DNA of 62,947 nt, filler included, from Diploschistes diacapsis (lineage: Eukaryota), in assembly GCA_023645945.1 (NCBI GenBank). It is 22 parts of 22 records of this genome, joined end to end, with 100 filler letters (N's around TTAATTAATTAA, not from the genome) between each part and the next. Parts side by side here need not be neighbours in the genome. Positions count along the whole stretch, not along the records: positions 1 to 19,102 come from JALAIB010000382.1; 21 more parts are not named here. One strand, 5' to 3'. Every line of letters starts with the position of its first letter. Within the stretch, counting starts at the first letter, position 1. A program made the translations under genes and the position numbers. Under the pieces are notes generated by a model. That model did no database searches. It saw nothing but the letters and a program-made list of their open reading frames with translations, and was not told the origin of the DNA. Shown piece after piece: positions 879 through 14,729 of this stretch.

Positions 879-1089
879 TGCGGGTGGGCTTTTTGGTCTA
901 GGCTGCGGTGTTGAACTCGATGTCAAGGCGGCTTGGAGATATGGTCGAGCAAAGGGCCAGGAAACATGGAAAGTGGTAATGCCATGCTATCGAAGCATTC
1001 TCTAGGCGTCTGCGGGGTGTAAGTGCGGGGCAAGTGTGGGGTATTGCACTTCCAGCAAGCAGAGAGAATTTAAGACATCTTTACAGTGG

Positions 1090-2976
1090 TCCTTGATCGT
1101 TATCCGTGAGTGCGCACAGTATTATTAGGAGAGATGTGACCAATGCACCAGTTCCCTCATGTTGTTGCCGGCCTTGCTGACTAATATTCTGTTGACGGTA
1201 CAAGAAAGTTCTTGTGGACGAATAAAAAAAACGGGGCGTCAGCAGGGTCGATGATCTATACCACGTCTTCTTATTTCGAGAGGAGCAGCAACGGGATTAT
1301 GTTGCTGCGGTATCCTCGTGGCTTCGTATTTTGGTTGCCGACCGGTCTCAATGTTTGAGACACAGTTATGGGTTAAAGACGAGAATGAGGCTCGTAAGCC
1401 TGCCGGCCATCCAGCGGCTGCGGAAATATGGTAGTGAAGCCTAGGACGTAAACAAGAATATGGACTGGACGGACGATGGAGCTACACTTATCAAGTTGGA
1501 TTGTGATCTTGATACAGATGACAATGCTAGTACGTATTACAGTAACAATAGTGATAGCAGAACCGACGATGGCGTTGATGCACGTTGCTTTAATTATTGC
1601 TTCTAACCGCATTCCCGGGGCGCCTATTATCTCATTCGCCAGGGTCATTTCCATTCATACAACAGGAGAAGATAATCGACCCGGGAGTAAAATCTCTCCT
1701 TAACCCTGTGCAACTTTGATATCGTCGCTAAACTATTTTGGAACAGGAAGACTTTTTCTCGAGCGAGAAGATGACTCTCTCCTTTGCCTTCTCGACCAAT
1801 TATTTTCCATGGAATATCAGCCATATATTTGGCGCCAAGGTGCCCTCTGGGAAGAAAAGTCTCCACTTAAAAATGAAACGTAAAGTCCTCGATATTCCGG
1901 TCTTCGTGAGCCCGGACAAATCCTAGATGGGTATCGCACATCGCCAAGGCAGCCTTTGCGATCGGGTACATAGCTTCGTTATCTTCGATAACTGGGTCGA
2001 AACTCCGGGCTGGAGCACTCCTTCACGCAGTATTGTGCACGACGGGGCTTAGTCAACGCCGTTAACAGTAAGTCGGCCCTCCCACCAATGCGACCCCGAT
2101 ACTAACAACCGAGATTACCGCAGACAAAGCGCCATCATCCATCCGGGACCAGGTATTCGATCACCAGGCTAACGCGGTCCGATACTATCTAGATCTGGAC
2201 GTTCGATTCAATACGCAAACAGCCTTTTTGGGCCGTCCTGTCGTGCACAAGTTGGCCAGACTCATTACATTGACCGTCAACCTCGACGCCCGGATAAATT
2301 GTCCGACAATCTGTCAAAGAAATTGGCAACAACAAGCGAGTATTTCAGCTCGGTCGCACGAGCAAAGAGCTTTCCCAAAAAAATCAAGGAGAAATATCAA
2401 TTCGTCCGGCTGACTCCTCCCAATGATCCGCTGCTTTAGCAAAAGAAAGAGGCGGATGCCGCCTTTCACCGAGAAAAATCCAATCGTCGAAACCGGATGA
2501 TCGAAAAGGCCCGGAAGCGGCATTTTCGAAACGCTGACACGGCAACCCTCGAGGCTCAGTTTCTCGATTCATTCCATTGCATTGTCCGATGAAGATGTTA
2601 AGCCCCGGCAACGCTTCGATACGAAATTCCTAAGCGAAGTGACATTGTCCTGTTGACCTGCAAGCCGATTACGGACCTTACGGATGACGAGAAGCAGACA
2701 CAGAGAATCTAGGCCCTTCGAACCCGGGTAGCATTGTGTGGTCGACAAGAGAGCCGACGCTCTAGTCAAAGACGGTCAATTGATCAGTCGCGCGGATTGA
2801 TAACGCCGACGAAAGGGTCCTTTGAGAGCTCTGAAGAGGACAAGATAGAACATTTTCCACTGGTGTGCAAGCCCACGCAGTATATCTTCTGCCTTGGCGA
2901 CGAACGCAAGTCTTACGAAGGGTGGACGTTTAGGTATGCTCGGCTCAACAAGATGATGGATGAGGTCGAGAGGTAA
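1090..2976 (+). pseudogene. DUF3435 tyrosine recombinase (Starship 'captain') pseudogene, copy 1
   Basis: Manual translation across frameshifts and stops gives VDDLYH, IASNRIPGAPIISFARVISIHTTGEDNRP, LDIPVF, LRYLR*LGRNSGLEHSFTQYCARRGLVNAVN, an intron at 2068-2123, NKAPSSIRDQVFDHQANAVRYYLDLDVRFNTQTAFLGRP, and a C-terminal FPLVCKPTQYIFCLGDERKSYEGWTFRYARLNKMMDEVER. These match DUF3435 motifs as I recall them. The N-terminus appears to be missing. Confidence 0.85.
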
Positions 2977-3280
2977 TCTTTCTCACACCCCTGTTGCTTA
3001 TTTAATATCCCTTGTGTTGTTGGTCTTCCACCTGTTTTCTGAATGGCGTGTGTTCATGATGGGTGAGTAATCGGTACTCTCTGAGTGTGCGTACCTCCCA
3101 AGTGTCACTCTCAAGCGTGCATACCTTTCCGAATCCCTATTGCGGGGCTCACAGATCTGTATTGGATTTGGTTGTGCACTCATATCCCTTTGATTTAGGA
3201 ATTATAGACGGACCTCATCAGCCCATCCCCGAAACTCAACCACAAGTTCCTATTGCATTACAGATGCTGTTCCAGACAAT

Positions 3281-3994
3281 TCACCAGCATTCGATCAGAA
3301 ATACACTCAAGAACTTGTTCTTCTTCGCCTCATCCAAGGGATATCTCATTTTCCGATTCTTTTTCATGAACGCCGCCAAATCGCTTCTGGAACCAAAACG
3401 GTGCGGGATTTTCCCGGTCTCTTTCGCATGAAGTAAATGATAGATGTTGATGTACACGTTTTTTAGTGCCTAATAAGACAGAAGGACATGTCAGCATCAG
3501 TACGACCAACAAGTTTCCGGCCGGGCAGATTGCTGGGAAAGCTGTACCTTTTTACACTGCTTGATAGATGGTGGTACCGGATTGATTCCACAGTCCTGAC
3601 AAAGCGTCTGCCATTTCTCTAGGACACTGTCGTTACTGCCATAATGTGTGGCAAACTGGGTGGCAACCCTTTGAATTTTTGCACTTCTCTTGGTAGTTCT
3701 TCCCTTAAGGTCAAGGCTTTGAAGCGCGCCCATCAAAGACGAAATATCGGCATCATCCATGGCATACTGAGCTCTAATGTAACCTTCTTCCTTGTCGATG
3801 TTGCAGCCAACAGGAACATCTGGGCCAAAACACTGGTACCAAGCTTTCTCAAATTTCTGGCTATTCGACCCCTGTTTCCATTTACGATTCTCCGCCAAAC
3901 GATGAAACTCGGTATAAAGGGTGGCGCGAGGCTCAAAACCATAATCATATTGTTGAAAGAACACCGCTCTGGTCGATGCTAATATGGGTTCCAT
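3281..3994 (-). CDS. Uncharacterised conserved fungal protein (WQxLCxxxGI..PxSIxxCKK..VNI family), 2 exons
   Basis: ATG at 3994, exon 1 3994-3548, intron 3547-3470 (GTACAG..CTGAC..TAG), exon 2 3469-3281 in frame to TGA. Reads FATHYGSNDSVLEKWQTLCQDCGINPVPPSIKQCKK|ALKNVYINIYHLL...YPLDEAKKNKFLSVFLIECW. Confidence 0.8.
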
Positions 3995-4499
3995 AATCGA
4001 TGCGGTAGGTTTTAGGAAATACAAAGTTTCTGACTGCCGGATTCCGAACCAATGCAAGGAGACCCCGCAGCTAGTTATTCAGGAAGATTATTAATAAAGT
4101 GGGATCAATAATGGACCGGGAAATGTGTAACTAACAACTTCCCCCAAACGGAGGACGTATCATTTTTGCTATGCTTTAGAGACTTGGTCCCGGCTGCATC
4201 TGCAACGCAGACTTCAGGAAGCGGAATTTGTTTCAAACTTTTCAAAGAAAGTCGCCCATTGTACGAGATAGGTGCGGTAAAGCGAAGGTGGCGGGCTGAA
4301 GCTATGGATCCCTCGAGGGCATATAGCATATCTCTCTTCTCGTCTCCGTTGCTGCCTCCTTGTCAATTGTACAAAGTTAACATGATGGATTTGCTCCAAT
4401 CGCAGACGATAGGATCCTGAACCCCATCACTAGTTAAGACCATTGCCACCTACAGACGTCTCCGCTGAAATTTCAATAACTCAGACGACATCATAGGTG

Positions 4500-6125
4500 C
4501 TCAGAGTACTAGTTCCCCGGCAGAGCTTGATACAACCTCATCTCTCGAAGGTCTACAGAGCGATGAGCAGCATCGTGTACTAAACATTTGTCGACCAACT
4601 TCGTAAATCTGGGCTCGAAAGTATTGGAGCTTCGAAGAAGGGCCGAGTTCGTTCGCAGAACGCAACATGTCTGAGGCCCTATACTTCCGAAGATCCATTT
4701 TCAAAACCCTACCTCCGGAGGGTGTCGGTATAGACGCTTTAAGAGTTCGTCTCAGTCAACTGCTGTTCACAAACGTAGAACACGAACTGTCCAAGCTGCG
4801 AGAAGACTTAGAAACAACCTTGACCGATTCCAAAAACCGGTTGAACACCATGGGCAAACGCCGAGCAACACCGGAAGAATGCAAAGCATATTTGTCACAG
4901 CACAGCCTTAACCTTTATGGGACTTGCAAAGCAGCAGTGGGTAAGTGACTATGAGGGTGAGTACTTCAACCACCGAATCGACAAGGCTTTCTTGATCAAT
5001 TCTTCGGCCACCATTCGCAGACTACTTGCAGTCATCCAAGAAATGTACACCACATTTTCCGATAACCTTCGTAAGAGAGGCCATAAGTATCATATCGATC
5101 GTTTACAGGCATTAACAGGAGTCGGGGATGTACTGAAAATAACGAGCTCAAAATTCGCCGACGATGACGTTTTTGAGGTTGAAGCGGCAGGCGTTGATTC
5201 TGTATCGGTCCAGCCAGCGGACCTCGACAGAACTCCACAAACTGGCATTCCGACCAAACTTATCCTACTCAAAAACGATTGAATGGGTCACCCAAGTGCT
5301 TAAGAGAACTCGTGGAAGAGAGCTCACCGGGAACTTTAACCCCCTTCTCGTTGGCGAGCTCTTTTGGGAACAGAGTTCAAAATGGCAGTCCCTCGTAATG
5401 GAGCATGTTGAAAACCGTTGCGCACGTTCGCAGCCAATTCCTTGCCACTCTACTCCAGGAAAAGTCTCCCAACGACACTCGTTCTCGCCTTTGGTTGTCT
5501 CTTATTCAAGATGCTCTGAAAATGCAGGCATGATGCTGTCTGTCAAGGAGCTTGAATCGATCATGATGGATATCAAGAGCTATCCAGTCAACTACAATCA
5601 TTATTACACCAACACGGTCATCAAGCGGCGTCAAGCTAGAGGAAAGAAAGCTCTCAACTAGTATATCGCAGGTGCCACCGACCATACGCGTCTCCCAGAG
5701 TGCAACTCCAACCACTTGTCCGCCAGTATCGACGTTGATCAAGCTATAGAGCATTACTCCCAACGCATTGACCCCAACATGGAGAGACACAGCTGCGAAG
5801 AGGCTCTTGACTGCTTGTTCGCCAGCTATAAAGCGAGCCAGAACCCAACACTTTTTGGTCCTTTCCTTGGGCGAATACATTCGTCTTTAGGTCTCGTAGA
5901 AAAATCTTATCGCTAATATTACAACCCACATCGTTCGCAACCTGGAGGAGATATTCTCACCCGTCGTGGTCGATGCGCTCTCAGACCTCGAGACTGAGGC
6001 CATTGCGTCGGAAGTTGCCAGGGCCCGGAGGCAGAGAAAATATGTTGGAGGATAGGATCGGGATATTGAATGAGGGGCATATTGTTCTTCGAGATGTTAT
6101 CAGGAGCGCTTCCTTCTCGGTTTAG
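4500..6125 (+). pseudogene. Dynamin-family (Mx/Vps1-like) GTPase pseudogene with the GTPase domain deleted
   Basis: N-terminal LEGLQSDEQHRVLN..DQLRKSGLESI jumps directly to post-GTPase GVGIDALRVRLSQLLF..ELSKLRED, then TRGRELTGNFNPLLVGELFWEQSSKW, YPVNYNHYYT and GED-like IVRNLEEIFSPVVV. Several frameshifts and stops. Confidence 0.8.
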
Positions 6126-7523
6126 ATTCTGGCCAATAGACCAATCGTTTGAATCTTTGCATAAATTTGATCTCATGCTCAGGTTGTCATACTTGGTAAA
6201 GTGAAAGCCTTCGAAGGTAGAGGGAGATGGACGGTGACATCCACAAGCTTGAGACATGGTGCCGTTCGTAAACCGGCGCCCGCAGCCTCTGCTTCAATTA
6301 CCGCAATACTCGGTCGAGCGAGCAGCAACTTCGATCAGGCTAAAAAGGCTGTGATAAACAGTCAGTCGACGTGTTAGTAGAATACAGGAGGAGTTGGGAG
6401 AAGTAGCTCATCGGGGAGGCATGGGAAAGGAAAGGCAAAAGTTCAGGATGCATGCCAAGCCACACCTTACCCCAACGTGGCGGCCGTTTTGATAGAATCG
6501 GCTTGCTTTTCACCATGGTTCGGCATTGATGTCTGTCCTGTCCAGATTAGCAGCGACCATGGAAGAGGTGTGGAGGCCTTTTCTCGCAGGACCCAAGATC
6601 TTCATGGGCACTATTTAAACACACGACCAGGTGAAATCCGAACCCCAACACCCGCGTCACTTCCGCCTTTTTCGAGGGCCGAAGAAGCAAGCACCCCGGA
6701 AGAAATCAGTCCTTATCCATTACACTATGCCATGTATCGTATTCCCCAATTTTGTACTCTTCCCCGTTTTCTTCGGTCGCCTCCTCTAACTTCTTTACAG
6801 CCTTTGTGTCCAAGCGATAGTGTATCCACAGGTCCTCAACCACAGTGTGGACTCCCCATCTAGCCAGGGACTTCAGTTGACCCAACTCCTTCCCACAAAC
6901 ATGCCGTGCGGCTATGATCAGCGGCCGCAGCGTGTTGAGAGGAGGTGGGTGCCCGAATTGGAGCCCAAGAGATTCTGCAAAATCGTGTTGATACGCATCT
7001 AGAAGAGGAGCAAGAGGTTAGGACATACCCATGGAGCGGAACGAGACACCAATTGGATGGCTTTGACCTCAATTTCCTACTGCCACCCCTGGTACCTCCG
7101 AGTCCTCCTTTTCCATTCCTTGCGACGACGTAGCGGGGCACGCTTATCCATGAAACAACATCCAGTTAACCAGAAACCCTCCGAATCCCCCGAAGTCTGC
7201 ACACTTCCGAGGAACTGCTTTAGAGTGTACAACAAGGCCTCTTCACTTTAGCAGAGAAAGGGAAGTTTTCGCCATTTAAATGGCAGATTCTATAACTACA
7301 CCCAAGCAAGGTGTCACGCAACCGACACAACCATCCAATAGAATTTCTTAGTGCCAGTGCGGCAAAGGGATACTGGTAAAGTATGCACTCTGCATCCGTG
7401 CTGTCGCTGTCTTATATTAACGACGCTCGACGGACCGCATTGGCACCGTTGCTACTACAGCCTTCTTCCCTTGGAAACACATCGTAGACTTCCCTCTTTG
7501 TATTAGCCACTAAGTCATCTGTA

Positions 7524-7646
7524 TTGACTCAAACGGATGTTATGATCATGGACACTGCCACCACCCTTCTGTCTTTCCTCGATAACCTCATCAGCATCGC
7601 TGACGATCCTCCCTCGCTGTACCTCGACTCGGAAGGAGTTAATCTG
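7524..7646 (+). pseudogene. N-terminal fragment of a fungal 3'-5' (DEDDy-type) exonuclease-domain protein
   Basis: DTATTLLSFLDNLISIADDPPSLYLDSEGVNL resembles the ExoI motif PPSLYxDxEGVNL. Similarity stops immediately afterwards. Confidence 0.55.
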
Positions 7647-8764
7647 TACCCCATGCCGTCCAGAAACGATTTGCTGTCTCTAAATCACTATCGGCCTTCG
7701 AAAACTAGCGTATAGCCTCTGAAGGACGGCATTGCTCCACGCTTTATTATCCTGCTCTTTCAACCCGTTTCAGCGGAGAACGTCGATGTGACTCGCAACA
7801 AGTGTCAGGAAATCAGAACGCGTAGCTGTTGTCGCGCTGCATTGGGCCCGGGGCATCAATCAGACGTGGCCAGGTCTATGCGCCCAGATCGGCCATTGCG
7901 AACCGAAGAAGGTTAATAATGCTAGGATAGCAGCGTGCATGCTTAATGTGGCGAGCCAGTTGCATCGGGAAATCTGCTTTGGTGCAAGGACACAACATCT
8001 CCCATTGCACATAGATAAGATGGCGACATGATGTCTAACAGCAAGTCAGTAGATATCGGGCGTAGTTTTCCACGAAATCAGAAATGTGCGAAGCTTCCCG
8101 TAACCACGGTGCGGATCAGCCGGCTAATCTAGATGGTGGCGTCAAGTAGGCCTAACCACCGATTATGCTTCTCACGTCCCACATAGCTGCATTGATCTCC
8201 TACGAGCTCAACCTGACCTCACGATGGCAGTCGCGGGTGCTTTGACTTGCGGATGAACATTGCAATCCGTAGGTGTGCAATGTCTCAACGGACACTTTCC
8301 CCAAGATGGAGATCACATGACCTGGCTTGGCTCCAATTATCCCATGGTTGCTTCCAGGAGAAACCGTGTCTCCGGTACACTCCTTTCAATGGACAGACTA
8401 CCTCTGCCATGTCTCGGTGGAAGGTGACTAACGCAACAACTTGCCTTGGACTCTTTTCCCTGCATTCTACCTATGTGCTGGTGAGGACTCAGTATATCTC
8501 AAAAGGACATTTCGCTTCAAACGCGGTCCCCACCGCATCGGCTTTTGGCTCCGACAGGCAGCTGATATCCTGCGCACATCAGCGCTATCGGGTAAGGGAT
8601 TATACAAAGGCTGGAGCAATGCGGTCTTGCTACTGAAAGTGACCTCGCAATCCACGTTCCACGTTCCAGTATTTCATGGACCAGCTTTCTAGGGAAATCA
8701 TATGGAATACATTGCAACCGATCCTTTGCCGAGACTATCTTTTCAATAGCTGAAGTAAATCCCG

Positions 8765-9128
8765 AGCGAACAACGCCTTCAGAAGTTTGCCAATGCCGCC
8801 CAAAACGCCTCGCTAGGGGTGGCATCCGTCTCAATGAGAAATGGCTGTTGTTCGAGCAGGGCAACGAAAGCAGTTGTCGCTAATCGACGAGACTAACGGT
8901 AGTGGAGAAGGCGAAAGTGATGAGATTGCTAGGACATTGTGAACGCACAAGCGAAACGCGATACGAAAGAAGCTGCCGTGGTCAAAGGAGAGCCTGGTCG
9001 GAAGCGTAAAAGCTCTGAACCAGTAACGGCGCAGGGCCCAAGCGCACGGAGGATTGAGGTAGAGGTTGCTCTGCGAGGAAATCGAACTGGAGCGAATGAG
9101 AGATTATTGCTCTGTGCTGCAGTCTTGA
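8765..9128 (+). mobile_element. pogo/Fot1-type transposase C-terminal remnant
   Basis: Frameshifted RLQKFANAAQ..LLFEQGNESSCR*STRLTVVEKAKVM..AQAKRDTKEAAVVKGEPGRKRKSS..EVEVA..DYCSVLQS*, which resembles a fungal pogo tail. Confidence 0.65.
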
Positions 9129-11025
9129 TAGTACTTACTTTGGTTCTGCATACTGGAAAAGACAAAAAAGTTCGCATTCTCTCACAGCGATCTGTTGCAG
9201 CCAGCAAACTGACAGTGACTTGTCATTAACAAATATCTTCCATATTCTTTTCAAGGATTGTATTGTAGTTCTCTTGTATTTTCTCTCTCTCGCTACCACT
9301 GTATTCTGCCAGGTAGTCGTACCTATCTCTTGCATCCAATTGATCCCAGTATTTGTTCCTGGCGTCTCTTTCGGTCTGCTATCGATCAGACTAGTCCAAG
9401 TAAAGCCGTGTTAGAAAACTTGCCTTCCTCGACTTCTGCGTGGTTTCTACTTTTGACAATTGCCTCGTTGGGAACAGGATGGAGGCAGAGAAAAGTTCCC
9501 CGAATATGTTGTATAGCGCTGCTCGGGAAGTTCAGATCGAGCTCTTTATTAAATCGCTAAGCTTAAAGAAGCGGTACATGCTCCTCATTATGGTCGTATC
9601 AAATGACATGTGGAGACTAATCGCGCTCTGGGCTTTTACGTCCTCTCCAAGACTGCTCGAGAATCCCAGTTTTCGGCGTGCTCGCGATCTGACATGGGAG
9701 AGATAATCGGCAACTCCACGTGAATTGGTTTTCTATATCTAGCTTGTTGGAATGTTATCAATTCGTAAGTACCATAACTTTCATCATATCCGCAGCAACG
9801 AAACCATCCAGGCTAGAGAAGGTTGTGCTGCTTACTAGATAGTGAAGTCGATAAACGTCATCAGGAGGTCAAACTCGGAACATATGTATACGTTCATGGT
9901 GATATCCTTCTATCCCGAGATAGAGAGACCACTTTCTGCTGTCTGTCTGCACTTCAATTCTCGGATAACCGTTGCGAGGCACCCAGAGGGATTCTTGAAA
10001 GCTTTCCATCACAAGAAGCTGAGCTGCATCACAGCTGACTTCGTGTCACCTGTCTATTGGGTAGCAGCAAAGTATTGTGGTTACACAGCATATCTGCCAT
10101 GTCAATGTCCAATGTGGACTGTTCAACTCACCCGCCCAAGGCGGTTGTGCTGTTCACCGATCATTTCTCCTATGCTCAATTGAAAGTCAAACTAACACGT
10201 TCATGACACTCCTAATACTATGAGTCTCCGTTGCGTACTTTGCGCTGGATCTTTCGACCGAATTACCCTATTATACTTATATCGAATATTTGCCGCAAAA
10301 CATCCCACTTGGGAAAAAAAACCCAATGACACTTTTAAGTATTGCCACACAAGCATCTTTTTGTTCACTAACACAAGCATTTGTACGGCGCTGGATTCGA
10401 AAGCCGTATTAGGGTCAGGCCAGGATGCCGAGCCTGGAGTGAAGAATATTCAGTGATAAACAGTGGGCACGACTTTCAAAAGGTTCCGCCAGCAGTCGTC
10501 TTAGCCATTCAACCAGATTGCCCACTTATCTGTTTGAAGAATCAATATCTTATATTAATCTACTCGGGCTAACGGTAGTGATCCGATCCCCGGATAATTC
10601 CTTAAATTCAACTACAGCTGGACTGCGCCCAACCATCCGTTTTGCCTGTCTACTCAACAGATATTATCAGTAACATAAGTTCATATAAGATATATGATTA
10701 CTAAGAAAAGGGTTTGAGGAAATATATATATCTATTATATAAAATCTAAGTCGGCGTCTGCGTAGTCTAATTGACAACCTTACGAGGTCTGTATGGACAA
10801 AACGGGGGAACAGGTGATGCTCCCAAATCTTCCCAGGTCCCGGGCCCTAATCGCTAAGCTTTCGCTTTTTAAGAAAAACGCGGTTGCACTGGAGCCTTCC
10901 CCCTCTCTTCGCTGCTCACTTTCTCCGGCTATCACTTGGCCATGTAAACTCCAAGCAGGCTTAATATTAGCATACGCCGAATCAGCTTGCTCTAGATTAA
11001 CAACCAACAAACTGGGTATACTACA

Positions 11026-11430
11026 ATGACATCCAACCTATCCGTTTGGGAAGAGCTGTGTGGAGCTAGTCACGTGGGTTTCGATGCAGATGCGGTCATT
11101 CCCCTTCAGCGTTGGCGAGTCCTCAGCGAGACTGACATTTACGAAACGTTATGCGATAGTACTGTACTTGCATTAAGCACGTACCCTACACGGAAGGAAC
11201 TGGACTCATGGTGCGAAATGAGATCAAGTTGTTGAAGAAGCTGCGCCATAAGCATATCATCAAGTTTGTAGGGACGTACACGTATCGGGAGTGTCTCGGG
11301 TTATTCTACTGGCCCGTTGCTCTTTCCCACCTCGCCACATTCTTGGAAGATATTAAAAAGCTTAAAGAACAGGTTGAGGAACAGCATACTGCAGCAATGG
11401 AAGATATCATATCCTCGGTGGGCCGTGTTA
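11026..11430 (+). pseudogene. Ser/Thr protein kinase N-lobe fragment (HET-associated fungal kinase type)
   Basis: SHVGFDADAVIPL..IYETLC, a frameshift, then RNEIKLLKKLRHKHIIKFVGTYTYRECLGLFYWPVALSHLATFLED (subdomains III-V). No catalytic loop is present before the AT-rich TE nest. Confidence 0.7.
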
Positions 11431-11833
11431 ACCTAGATCGCCAGTGTTGTGTAAAGTTGATATCTGGCGGGAAATCTACAACAAATTGTGATTGTAAATA
11501 ATCCGTATAGAATTTATTTTAATCTTTTTCTAAATTATAAATATTAAAAATATAGCAGCGAGATAGAACAAGATGTTCGGTTTAGAAAGGAGTAGAGAGA
11601 AGCAGGAATCCAGAGAACAGAAGATTAGGGATATGGATGTGATTTTAATTTCTAGAAGACTCGGTTGAAAACGAGTAGCGCTTTTTAATTACTTTATTTC
11701 AAAACGAGCTGAATGCGATATTAAAATAAGTATATATCTTAGCAATACGATTTAAAAAGTATTATTTATTTTTAAAACCGGGGAGTCGTAGAGCGTTATT
11801 TGTTTTTAATATATTAGAAACGTTAATTTAAAG

Positions 11834-11993
11834 TAGGCTGGCCGTTTCGTGCCACGGTCACTAACACGGACACTATAACAAAATTTTTTAAAACACGGAC
11901 ACTGACACGGACATCGTAATTAAAAAATTTAAAACACGAATATTAATACGGATATTATATGTCCGTGAATTCACTGACACGGACATTATATTA
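11834..11993. mobile_element. MITE family 'TAGGCTGGCCGT', one end only, interrupted by an LTR
   Basis: Terminal TAGGCTGGCCGT plus ACACGGACAC arrays, matching the copies at 50740, 52856, 55929 and 62727. Confidence 0.75.
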
Positions 11994-12427
11994 TGTTGAA
12001 AGTGGTGGAAGTTCCTAATAGATAACTGATGACTAAGAGTGTATTCTTCAGCTAGTCCTAACTAAGGAATAATCCTAGCCTGCCTAGCCTGGTAGCTGAC
12101 TATTGTTCAATGATAATATATTGAAGAGGTTGAAGGTTATATCCAAGAACAATGGAGGGTGAGAGGCCTTTTATAGGCACATTTCACGCTAGTAATCATT
12201 ATTCTAGAATGTTTTTTATCCTTCTAACTCATTCCATGTATTAGTAAGCCGAATATTCTAGAATATTCTAGAATATTCGATGATATTCGATAATCTTCGA
12301 TGATGTTCTATTATGTTCTAGAATATTCTAGAACCTTCTAGAACCTTCTAGAACCTTTCAGCATATTCGAACATGCTAGAAGCTTAATAAGCAATCTGAC
12401 AAACCTATTTAGGTTAGTATTCTGACA
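11994..12427 (-). mobile_element. Isolated LTR (434 bp) with a heat-shock-element array and TATA box
   Basis: TG..CA ends (minus strand TGTCAGAA...TTCAACA) and TATAAAAG on the minus strand at 12175-12168. It sits between a MITE end and a pogo TIR, with no matching TSD. Confidence 0.7.
12251..12370. promoter_or_regulatory. Array of heat-shock elements (nGAAn inverted repeats, 10-bp period)
   Basis: Twelve in-register 10-mers (consensus GAAYMTTCTA). Perfect runs are GAAtaTTCtaGAAtaTTCtaGAAtaTTC (12251-12278) and TTCtaGAAtaTTCtaGAAccTTCtaGAAccTTCtaGAA (12316-12353). Confidence 0.7.
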
Positions 12428-12759
12428 CCCGTCAAACACGTTATAATTTATTAAAAAACGTATATTTTTTCGTTTTTATTAATTTACGTTTTATACGATT
12501 CCGTACGCGTTATTCTCGAGATTTTTAAAATTTATTACGTAAAATGGATCGAAAAATATCGTAAATCTATATAATCTTCCGTATAGAAGTAATTTAATCA
12601 GTTTTCATTAATTTAATAACTAATAATAACCGTCTTTCTTGCTAAGTATCAATTAATATAATGATGGTTGAGATATATGAAGTTATAAGTTAAAAACACG
12701 TAAAAGAGAAGGAGGTGGGCGGATGACTTGTGTGGGCGGATGACTTATGAAATACGTTA
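12428..12759 (-). mobile_element. Two pogo/Fot1-type terminal remnants
   Basis: CCCGTCAAACACGT+TA (12428-12443) is the terminus of the family at 40484 and 46065. GTGGGCGGATGACTT x2 ..AATACGT+TA (12714-12759) is a second ACGT-ended TIR with an internal direct repeat. Confidence 0.65.
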
Positions 12760-12873
12760 ACTCTAATGTACAGAATGCTCTGACGCCAGATAACAACGTC
12801 TATTACCCAGCACGTTTATGCTAATTTAGGGCTTTCAAGAAAGCTTGCCGTGTAAAATTATCTATTTCGCAAT

Positions 12874-13995
12874 CTATTTCGCAATCTCCACGCCTCCAGT
12901 TGCGCCTGGGCTTCGTTAATATATATATCTCGCACACAGAAGAGTAGTGAGCTTACCAAGAGCCTTCTTTATATCGCCGTAGATGGCAAATTGGCCAGCA
13001 GTGAGTGTCCCGACCATCACGAGACGTGCGCCAATACCCGCAAAAGAGCCTCTGAGACCGAGTTCCTTGCCAATCTTGAACAAGCGGCTCATGGTACCTT
13101 CACCTGGGAGACCCTTGGTCTTATTGATCTTGCTGAGCATAGTGTCGGCCGGCTGAGATACAAGAGCTGCGGCAAAGCCAGCGATAAGACCTGAGCCTAA
13201 GTTAATAGTAGTTTGCATGCCACCGGATGCCTGCGATTTATCGATTCGCTTGTAGACTGCTTCGGCGACCTTCTCGTAGACCACGAACTTTGCCATTGTG
13301 TACGGAACCCTGTGAAAATCTCAGACACGGCGCCGAAATCGTGAGCTGGGTTCTACCTACTGCTTGAAAAGAATTGGGCCAAAACCAGAGTAGAAGGCTC
13401 CAAAACCTTCAGTGCGGTAAATCTTACCAAAACCACCGATCAGACCGTTTGCAAAGGTTGGCTCTGACACGAGACGGATACGCGTCGCTTCCAAGGGGCA
13501 TAGTGCAATATCGGCGAAAAACTCTGCAGCAGCTGAAGAGGCCAGGTAGACGGCAGTACGGTTGTCCGATGCAGCCTCATAGCCCAGTCCGCTGATGGCT
13601 TGTTGCTTGAAAAACTCGTAGCCCCCAAACTTGAAAGCGCCCTGGAGGAAGTAGCCAGCAAAGGTAGGACCAACGCCAGTCAAGAGAGCGGATGCACCCT
13701 CGTTGGCGATAACCTTGCGAAAGCCGCCAATCATGCCATTATTGTAGGTTGCAGGGTCGAGCTGTATACGAGTCTTGACGCTGTGGAAAGATTAGCAAGA
13801 TCGAAAAGGCCGATTCAGCTGTACCACTCACACATCGACTGGTGTCAGAGAGCCATGAGTAACTGAGCAACAGATGGCACCGGCAAACGCGAACCTCGAG
13901 TACAGGCCAAGGCCGCTCAGCTTCGTCTCTGCCTTTGTTGTCTGGATGGCAGCGTCAAGCTTTGTCGAGCCAGTCGAGCTTGTTGGCGATGCCAT
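12874..13995 (-). CDS. MIR1: Mitochondrial phosphate carrier
   Basis: Exons 13995-13832, 13780-13361, 13309-12957 and 12905-12874 with canonical GT-AG introns. Carrier signatures [22 protein letters not shown] and [11 protein letters not shown], plus [11 protein letters not shown] and [16 protein letters not shown]. Confidence 0.95.
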
Positions 13996-14729
13996 GAAGA
14001 GTAACGTAGCCGTAGAAGGTGGAAGTACGCAGTAAGATAAGGGATTGAATATCGTCGTTCGTCTGTCGGTCGATCGGTTGGTCGGTCGCAGCTGATTTTG
14101 CTCACTCTTTTCCTCAGCGAAAAAACCTTTCCGGGAGAATCCGACTAAACTAAATCCTTCCACGCCGTTACTGTCCGGTCTAGCCTAGCAGCTCTTATAG
14201 TCCCCGGGTGAGCAGCGATGGCCCCGGGGGAGTCTGGTGTACATAAGTGTAAGTAAGTGTGACGGCGGCCTCTTGACCGCCCGATTCGCCGGGGGTTTAT
14301 TGGGGGTTTATTGAGTCGGGCTCTGAATCTGTCTGACAGTCTTCTCAAGAAATACTGGGGCAGCAGCTCATCCAGTTCTCAGCAAAACTCTTGTATCTCG
14401 ATTCTGGACAGAATCTGACGCGGAGGACACAGGGCCGCCTTCTCGTTCATCATCAACCACAGCGCCATCATGCGGGCGATTGAAGAATGGAAAGCTCTTA
14501 GTCAACGATATAGCAGATGTTGCAGCAAATAACCGCATTCGGAAAGCCCATCGCTCGGTGTGTGCAGCGTCTGAAACTTACTCAGCCACAGACTCCAGTG
14601 TTTTAAGTGATTGAGTCGTAACCTGCGGCTGTTGCTTCCTCACGTTTCAGAAGGTACTGCACATCACGGATCTTGTTGACGAGCAGCAGCTCAACAAGAT
14701 GCTCGATCATTCCGAAGGTCGCCGAATTC

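Follow-up and report, generated by a model that had tools for sequence, protein, structure and literature searches.

In the genome of Diploschistes diacapsis, a dispersed family of Ty1/Copia LTRs carries a long, phased array of HSEs upstream of a TATA box, and we consider it probable that the LTR of this family is a heat-inducible promoter driven by the host's Hsf1. This reading is drawn from the build of the array, from the TATA box that follows it, from the host's heat-shock factor (HSF), from the recurrence of HSE clusters in related elements and from likeness to plant and flatworm retrotransposons. The mechanism would be of the known ONSEN kind; what is new is that HSE clusters of different build are found in related Copia LTRs and leaders of other genomes. 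The copy studied lies in a window of 62,947 nucleotides (the whole stretch of DNA that was analysed). An earlier note on this DNA had described it as a TG...CA element containing a phased array with perfect runs of eight and six nGAAn units, a proximal site and a TATA box, and every one of these features was found again in its place (Table 1). The note had named heat or desiccation as the possible inducing stress; there is no pointer to desiccation in particular.

Table 1. Features of the LTR and its surroundings (positions in the window), and leader HSE runs in related metagenome loci
Feature	Position	Strand	Remarks
Solo LTR, Ty1/Copia, 434 bp, TG...CA	11994..12427	-	5-bp TSD absent; linkage to gag and RT-RNaseH from other copies
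Phased HSE array in U3	12250..12369	-	24 pentamer slots, 18 canonical
Perfect run, 8 alternating nGAAn units	12315..12354	-	
Array centre	12280..12314	-	GAA every 10 bp, TTC slots altered; fits step-type HSE pattern
Perfect run, 6 alternating nGAAn units	12250..12279	-	
Proximal HSE dimer	12202..12209	-	TTCTAGAA in window copy; commonest form in other copies a GAA-TTC dimer
TATA box TATAAAAG	12168..12175	-	Kept in the family and in sister LTR families with different U3
Upstream flank	12428..12760	.	AT-rich, CpA-poor dispersed repeat, MITE-like; 41 genome matches
Downstream flank	11834..11993	.	Terminal part of another dispersed repeat (CACGGACAC-rich), truncated by LTR; 63 hits in 21 records
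Protein-kinase gene remnant	11160..11498	+	Antisense to LTR; Pkinase E 4e-5, under Pfam cut-off
Broken DUF3435 (Starship captain-like) remnant	1926..2562	+	Two frames with stops, E 1e-6 and 5e-5
Host mitochondrial carrier gene	12916..14184	-	3' end ~490 bp before LTR; promoter ~1.8 kb off
Leader HSE runs after primer site	L151:124-260, L155:1-200, L167:33-280, L174:344-368, L214:850-864		

The window element is almost certainly the solo LTR of a Copia retrotransposon. Its sequence is a dispersed repeat with sharp ends and at least 79 matches in its own genome, and the family counts given below are based on 26 whole LTRs recovered from the loci examined. A 5-bp target-site duplication (TSD) is exact in six of these and agrees at 4/5 positions in three; twelve are without one, the window copy (0/5) included, and 5/26 adjoin a primer site or a purine tract. 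Downstream of the LTR in L032 and L033 there is a primer-binding site (PBS) followed by a Copia gag-protease stretch (Retrotran_gag_2, E 4e-14; Pol_BBD, E 2e-12), and upstream of the LTR in L112 and L113 there is a Copia reverse transcriptase (RVT_2, E 3e-45 and 8e-43). The RNaseH end and a purine tract stand before the LTR in L012, L020, L112 and L113, with GGGGGTG in L012 and L020. Since gag lies behind the LTR and RT-RNaseH before it, the reading direction is fixed as array, then TATA box, then primer site; the earlier note had assumed this direction, and its view of the element as the LTR of a gag-pol retrotransposon is borne out by these linkages in other copies. RT-RNaseH comes last in the HSE-LTR family, and a sister family has the order gag-protease-preintegrase-integrase (L105). 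The proposed comparison of the LTR with the genome yielded a shared array but no full-length parent: no whole two-LTR element occurs among the contigs examined, and the gag and RT stretches linked to the HSE LTR contain many stops.

A 14-nt stretch of the PBS is complementary to the anticodon arm of the host's tRNA-Met(CAT) (L046), which we take by its hallmarks to be the initiator tRNA. Half-tRNA priming has been described for copia and Ty5 (PMC1181622), and in the accessible part of that source the hemivirus-type Copia elements (copia, Ty5, 1731 and Osser) share a PBS that pairs with the anticodon arm of the initiator tRNA, a likeness by primer site alone. Membership of GalEa or of FunCo1, as these are defined in the available portion of PMC5445492, was considered and rejected, the PBS being that of an iMet half-tRNA versus a conserved hairpin site in GalEa and a tRNA-Lys PBS in FunCo1.

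Both the array and its phase proved to be traits of the family, as the reading of a single copy had implied. The array is in register in 23 of the 26 whole LTRs, and its length varies between 5 and 115 bp by increments of 10. Perfect runs of four units or more persist in 20/26, and the TATA box, also singled out beforehand, is intact as TATAAAAG in 21/26. Among the 23 in-register copies GAA is present in 157 of the 178 slots, with both spacers variable, and the distance from the end of the array to the TATA box is 75-85 bp in every case (75 bp in the window copy). In the centre of the window array, whose 24 slots run from 12368 to 12253, four TTC slots are changed and the GAA slots retained, the step-type pattern being understood here as it is defined in the available text of PMC4552642. 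The proximal TTCTAGAA is a variant of the window copy; the commonest form, GGAACATTCTAGATTA, is present in 8 of the 23 copies read. When the window LTR was shuffled 20,000 times with its dinucleotides preserved, the longest nGAAn run was of four units (3 shuffles), a run of three arose in 124, and none was longer, a test that is weak when taken alone because shuffles ignore tandem duplication.

Perfect four-unit sites number 116 in the genome, versus 10 for a control pattern, and among the matches listed (50 of the 116) all but one, 49, belong to the HSE-LTR family or to close variants; sites with a spacer type foreign to the family number only three genome-wide. In a sister family, whose LTR ends and TATA box are similar, only one GAA-TTC dimer is present, and four units are present in a third LTR, which suggests that the array may have grown from a seed. 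The other Copia LTR types of the genome have a run of at least three units in 0 of the 16 loci shown and in one further copy, L108. We propose that a GAAnnTTC seed in U3 would have been duplicated in tandem until it formed a high-affinity HSF platform upstream of the TATA box, that trimers of the host Hsf1 would have bound this array cooperatively while the element was active, and that under heat or proteotoxic stress the bound Hsf1 would have driven the synthesis of full-length RNA from the 5' LTR, in the manner of ONSEN, with selection on the element lineage presumably favouring the Hsf1-driven array.

An array whose length changes in steps of 10 bp could also be a by-product, a palindromic 10-mer that was amplified by slippage of replication or of the reverse transcriptase, hardened by RIP and never selected for Hsf1. 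Phase-keeping is what slippage yields anyway, the sister LTR families are rich in other short palindromes, and TTCTAGAA is itself both a palindrome and an end product of RIP. After insertion, moreover, the decay is neutral: in the 23 in-register copies (the 3/26 out of register being left out) 12/205 HSE cores (5.9%) and 78/1334 other CpT sites (5.8%) are changed (Fisher p = 1), so that nothing points to selection on the cores once an LTR has inserted. The mutation bias of the family is mild (CpA 9.6%, CpT 5.8%, reverse 1.6%). We nevertheless think it unlikely that the array is such a by-product, first on the ground that, when 32 trimer classes are ranked by the number of LTR clusters with a run of at least four units, GAA/TTC comes first (2/21); of the four clusters with a GAA/TTC three-unit run, one depends on the single copy L108. 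The evidence from related elements bears on the same question.

Relatives were found with a 30-protein gag alignment, which gave 79 loci in metagenome contigs; a search for gag relatives in viral_contigs gave 107 pattern matches, none of them confirmed. The same primer site is present in 54 of the 79 loci, and perfect runs are present in 12. Across all 79, runs of at least three units occur 30 times upstream of gag (81.8 kb) and not once within the gag matches (59.0 kb). The upstream GAA runs have a spacer of 2 bp in 30 cases, other spacers giving 0-2, and all 11 loci with an upstream run exceed third-order Markov simulations (0-2 of 300). When upstream runs are counted by trimer over 32 classes, the AT-only ATA (47) and TAA (32) stand ahead of GAA (30), as is expected in AT-rich DNA. 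In most run-bearing loci a TATA follows the end of the last run at a distance of 11-116 bp; this, and the confinement of the runs to non-coding, promoter-side DNA, speaks against a mere by-product.

The clusters are of several builds. In loci L150, L156, L157, L181 and L217, blocks of three to four units recur with a period of ~64 bp ahead of the TATA; this L150 group, which need not be fungal, lacks a RIP signature (substrate index 1.12-1.45). In L151 and L155 there are sites in the LTR and again in the leader, before a second TATA, and in L167 there are sites in the leader; L178 has two runs in its LTR, and a single leader run is present in each of L174 and L214. The second TATA of L151, L155 and L167 lies between the leader HSEs and gag, an arrangement that possibly constitutes an internal stress promoter. 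The window LTR matches the HSE-bearing metagenome loci almost only via the HSE cores. Slippage and RIP would accord with the absence of HSEs from most relatives (of the 39 metagenome loci in which 250 bp or more precede the PBS, 36 have no HSE run within 600 bp) and with the strongly RIP-like substrate indices, 0.31-0.46, of L151/L153/L155/L166/L167 and L174/L178/L182/L183; they accord poorly with the recurrence of the same trimer and the same 2-bp spacer in LTRs that cannot be aligned, including the group without a RIP signature.

A single clade of HSE bearers was rejected on a quick gag tree (p-AU 5e-8; the label needs 4 changes). This test was made with 28 chosen rows, 11 with HSEs and 17 without, under corrected labels that were set after the first tree had been seen; the first gag tree had 83 rows, with 5 loci dropped for a short or missing gag match, and L153 and L166 have only dimers. 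The rejection fits gains, losses or LTR swaps alike, and an exchange of LTRs among families could look like several independent gains. The differing builds of the HSE clusters, together with the lack of a single clade, favour a repeated recruitment of Hsf1, as with ONSEN in plants, over slippage alone. That such clusters recur in related lineages suggests a general way in which heat could activate the retrotransposons of fungi. A wider proposal can be made tentatively, and with somewhat more doubt than confidence: a half-tRNA-primed Copia lineage that is widespread in filamentous fungi may have repeatedly built strong Hsf1 promoters (10-bp arrays, 64-bp blocks and a second HSE-TATA module in the leader), which families would have exchanged and a miniature parasite would have acquired; in the present genome one family would then hold nearly all the perfect long HSEs, enough for warming to trigger retrotransposon transcription directly and possibly to draw Hsf1 off host promoters.

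The host possesses an HSF (L122; E 1e-23 to human HSF2) with an identical recognition helix, SFVRQLNMYGF. A perfect three-unit site was found upstream in only one of the nine host HSP70/HSP20 loci scanned, that of a cytosolic HSP70, at ~170 bp upstream of its Pfam match, and the host's own use of HSEs is therefore thinly shown. Hsf1 might bind the array for a purpose other than heat, either in constitutive or developmental (spore, germination) transcription or in keeping the promoter open against silencing. According to the accessible part of PMC13418487, the Hsf1 of Saccharomyces cerevisiae binds HSEs without stress, and the HsfA of Aspergillus flavus, which binds nGAAn elements, is present on promoters at 29 C and drives the genes of germination; a second repeat, moreover, has inserted into the array at L093, L024 and L067, perhaps because the chromatin was open there or just because TA is dense. 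HsfA occupancy, however, was higher at 37 C (PMC13418487), and perfect elements of the 4P type are strongly heat-induced in plants and flatworms, as reported in the available portions of PMC5059998 and PMC12801592; by analogy with these we regard a purpose other than heat as quite improbable.

If it is a heat-inducible promoter, the family LTR can be set beside several known systems. The element MAGGY of Magnaporthe is reportedly activated by heat. In the parts of PMC9942834 and PMC12810828 that are available, TCN12 and TCN3 of Cryptococcus are likewise fungal LTR elements with putative HSEs and are mobilised at 37 C, but they have one imperfect step-type or two putative HSEs as against a long perfect array, and the action of Hsf1 is putative there too. 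The second of these sources, a 2026 paper, states in its accessible text that HSF-driven TE activation 'remains undescribed in fungi' (PMC12810828). A literature search that excluded most subscription journals, Repbase and supplements turned up no description of a perfect HSE array in the LTR of a filamentous ascomycete.

Among plants, ONSEN/COPIA78, TERESTRA, COPIA37 and ROMANIAT5 of the Brassicaceae are, in the available text of PMC5059998, alike in being Ty1/Copia elements whose LTRs have perfect nGAAn runs, in the growth of these runs by duplication of a proto-element and in their gain by several families; for the 4P elements an induction of up to 1000-fold is given there. Two sequence hallmarks of the ONSEN type are present here as well, with at least four perfect units upstream of a TATA in 20/26 LTRs and a conserved recognition helix in the host HSF. 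The fungal family differs from the 4P elements in its phased array of ~120 bp, in which as many as 8-10 perfect units are consecutive, and from the Brassicaceae elements generally in its fungal host, its half-tRNA primer site and its RIP-damaged internal parts; the likeness to COPIA78 is one of design. The LTR retrotransposons of the flatworm Macrostomum lignano also have canonical HSEs upstream of the LTR start and several independent gains, but the induced families described in the accessible part of PMC12801592 belong to Ty3/Gypsy and have 1-4 motifs, and there was no induction of two Copia families that have a single HSE apiece. The Helitron HSE clusters of Caenorhabditis are alike in that one repeat family supplies most of the strong HSEs of the genome (PMC6927752, available portion); they differ in belonging to a rolling-circle DNA element for which HSF-1 occupancy and gene rewiring were shown, the Diploschistes copies lying mostly among other repeats. 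HSF-driven activation of LTR retrotransposons has in these sources, as far as their available text goes, been shown in plants and a flatworm, and the fungal sites described are one or two weak putative ones. The present family offers a strong and cheap test case, a 434-bp LTR with a perfect array of 8+6 units, and it has built-in controls in its natural short-array variants, such as L032, and in an HSE-poor sister LTR (L071, with the dimer alone) that has the same TATA.

A miniature element resembling a TRIM accompanies the family. It has the primer site and the purine tract of the family, a body of ~150 bp and a 72-bp LTR whose two ends are those of the HSE LTR. It was observed at L002:957-1184, L027:584-1140, L030:1270-1500, L039, L043, L045, L065 and L070, has matches in ~20 contigs and is in tandem in L027. 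At the start of its body the host tRNA-Met is matched a second time, here by way of the D-arm; an Rfam scan of seven loci with the element gave a single chance hit (E 0.73). It differs from Helenus, as the latter is described in the accessible part of PMC10886601, in that no tRNA-like part was recognised in its LTR. Chimeras were also seen, with an HSE LTR before a miniature body in L002 and L030 and a 72-bp LTR before the gag of the sister family in L064, and they suggest an exchange of LTRs between co-packaged families. LTRs of the HSE-LTR family or of its sisters are nested in one another in L026, L028 and L104; in L026 one LTR lies within the HSE array of another with an exact 5-bp duplication. 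The TA-flanked, CACGGACAC-rich, MITE-like repeat that adjoins the window LTR at 11834-11993 lies within the HSE array in L093:1015-1175, L024 and L067, and in L093 two 5' halves of the LTR lie on either side of it in inverted orientation.

The window copy is 86-94% identical to the other 25 whole LTRs outside the array and has 6/107 C>T/G>A changes (range 0-19 across the 26 copies), and it is therefore an ordinary old solo LTR, not an unusually pristine one. Its retention of CpA/TpG dinucleotides, remarked upon in the earlier note as a contrast to its neighbours, holds good: its RIP substrate index is 1.17 versus 0.62 and 0.53 in its two flanks. A recent insertion was rejected on this identity and on the lack of a TSD, with the proviso that copies almost identical to one another may have been merged in a short-read assembly. 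On its two sides the copy abuts different truncated repeats, without duplication, and the upstream one has a resemblance, but no more, to the 'Fot1/pogo-type'. Either an ectopic LTR-LTR recombination or a mis-join in short-contig assembly would account for the missing TSD, and the copy is a non-mobile relic and probably a recombinant. Judged by its sequence, it may still be able to bind Hsf1, with no intact gene to drive.

The earlier note had gone further, with dispersed LTRs adding promoters to genes and with this copy transcribing into a Starship relic. The first of these ideas is weakly supported for the family, in that 34/50 flanks (of at least 60 bp) of the whole LTRs are themselves repeats and the array decays neutrally; for the window copy, promoter donation is not supported because it is old, without a TSD, set between truncated repeats and directed antisense into gene remnants. 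The second is only loosely true: a Starship relic to the left of the LTR is plausible on sequence grounds; the DUF3435 remnant is 9.4 kb off and on the opposite strand, and transcription would meet the truncated repeat first and then the kinase remnant in antisense. It is accordingly very improbable that this copy was co-opted as a heat-inducible promoter or enhancer of the Starship-like region or of the carrier gene, even with its TATA and both runs intact, its place at the border of host genes and a region of DUF3435, dynamin and kinase remnants, and the precedent of Helitron HSEs that rewire genes in Caenorhabditis (PMC6927752, in the part available). Six-frame scans found no minus-strand Pfam match in 901-12002, the plus-strand matches there (kinase, dynamin, DUF3435) are broken remnants, the copy decays in the ordinary way, and the carrier gene ends upstream of the LTR with its promoter well behind that end.

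Some minor features of the window may be recorded. Positions 19103-62947 are not on contig C3135, and after 38280 the window consists of pieces of ~1.2 kb, mostly AT-rich and CpA-poor, whose adjacency is not genomic because they are joined by N spacers. In the Starship-like region, positions 3497-4078 (minus strand) hold an open frame of 193 residues with no Pfam match. The same 18-bp repeat end adjoins the LTR at window positions 12428-12445 and in the 3' flank of L003, in opposite orientations and in both cases without a TSD, and it is possible that it marks an insertion hotspot or a recombination scar.
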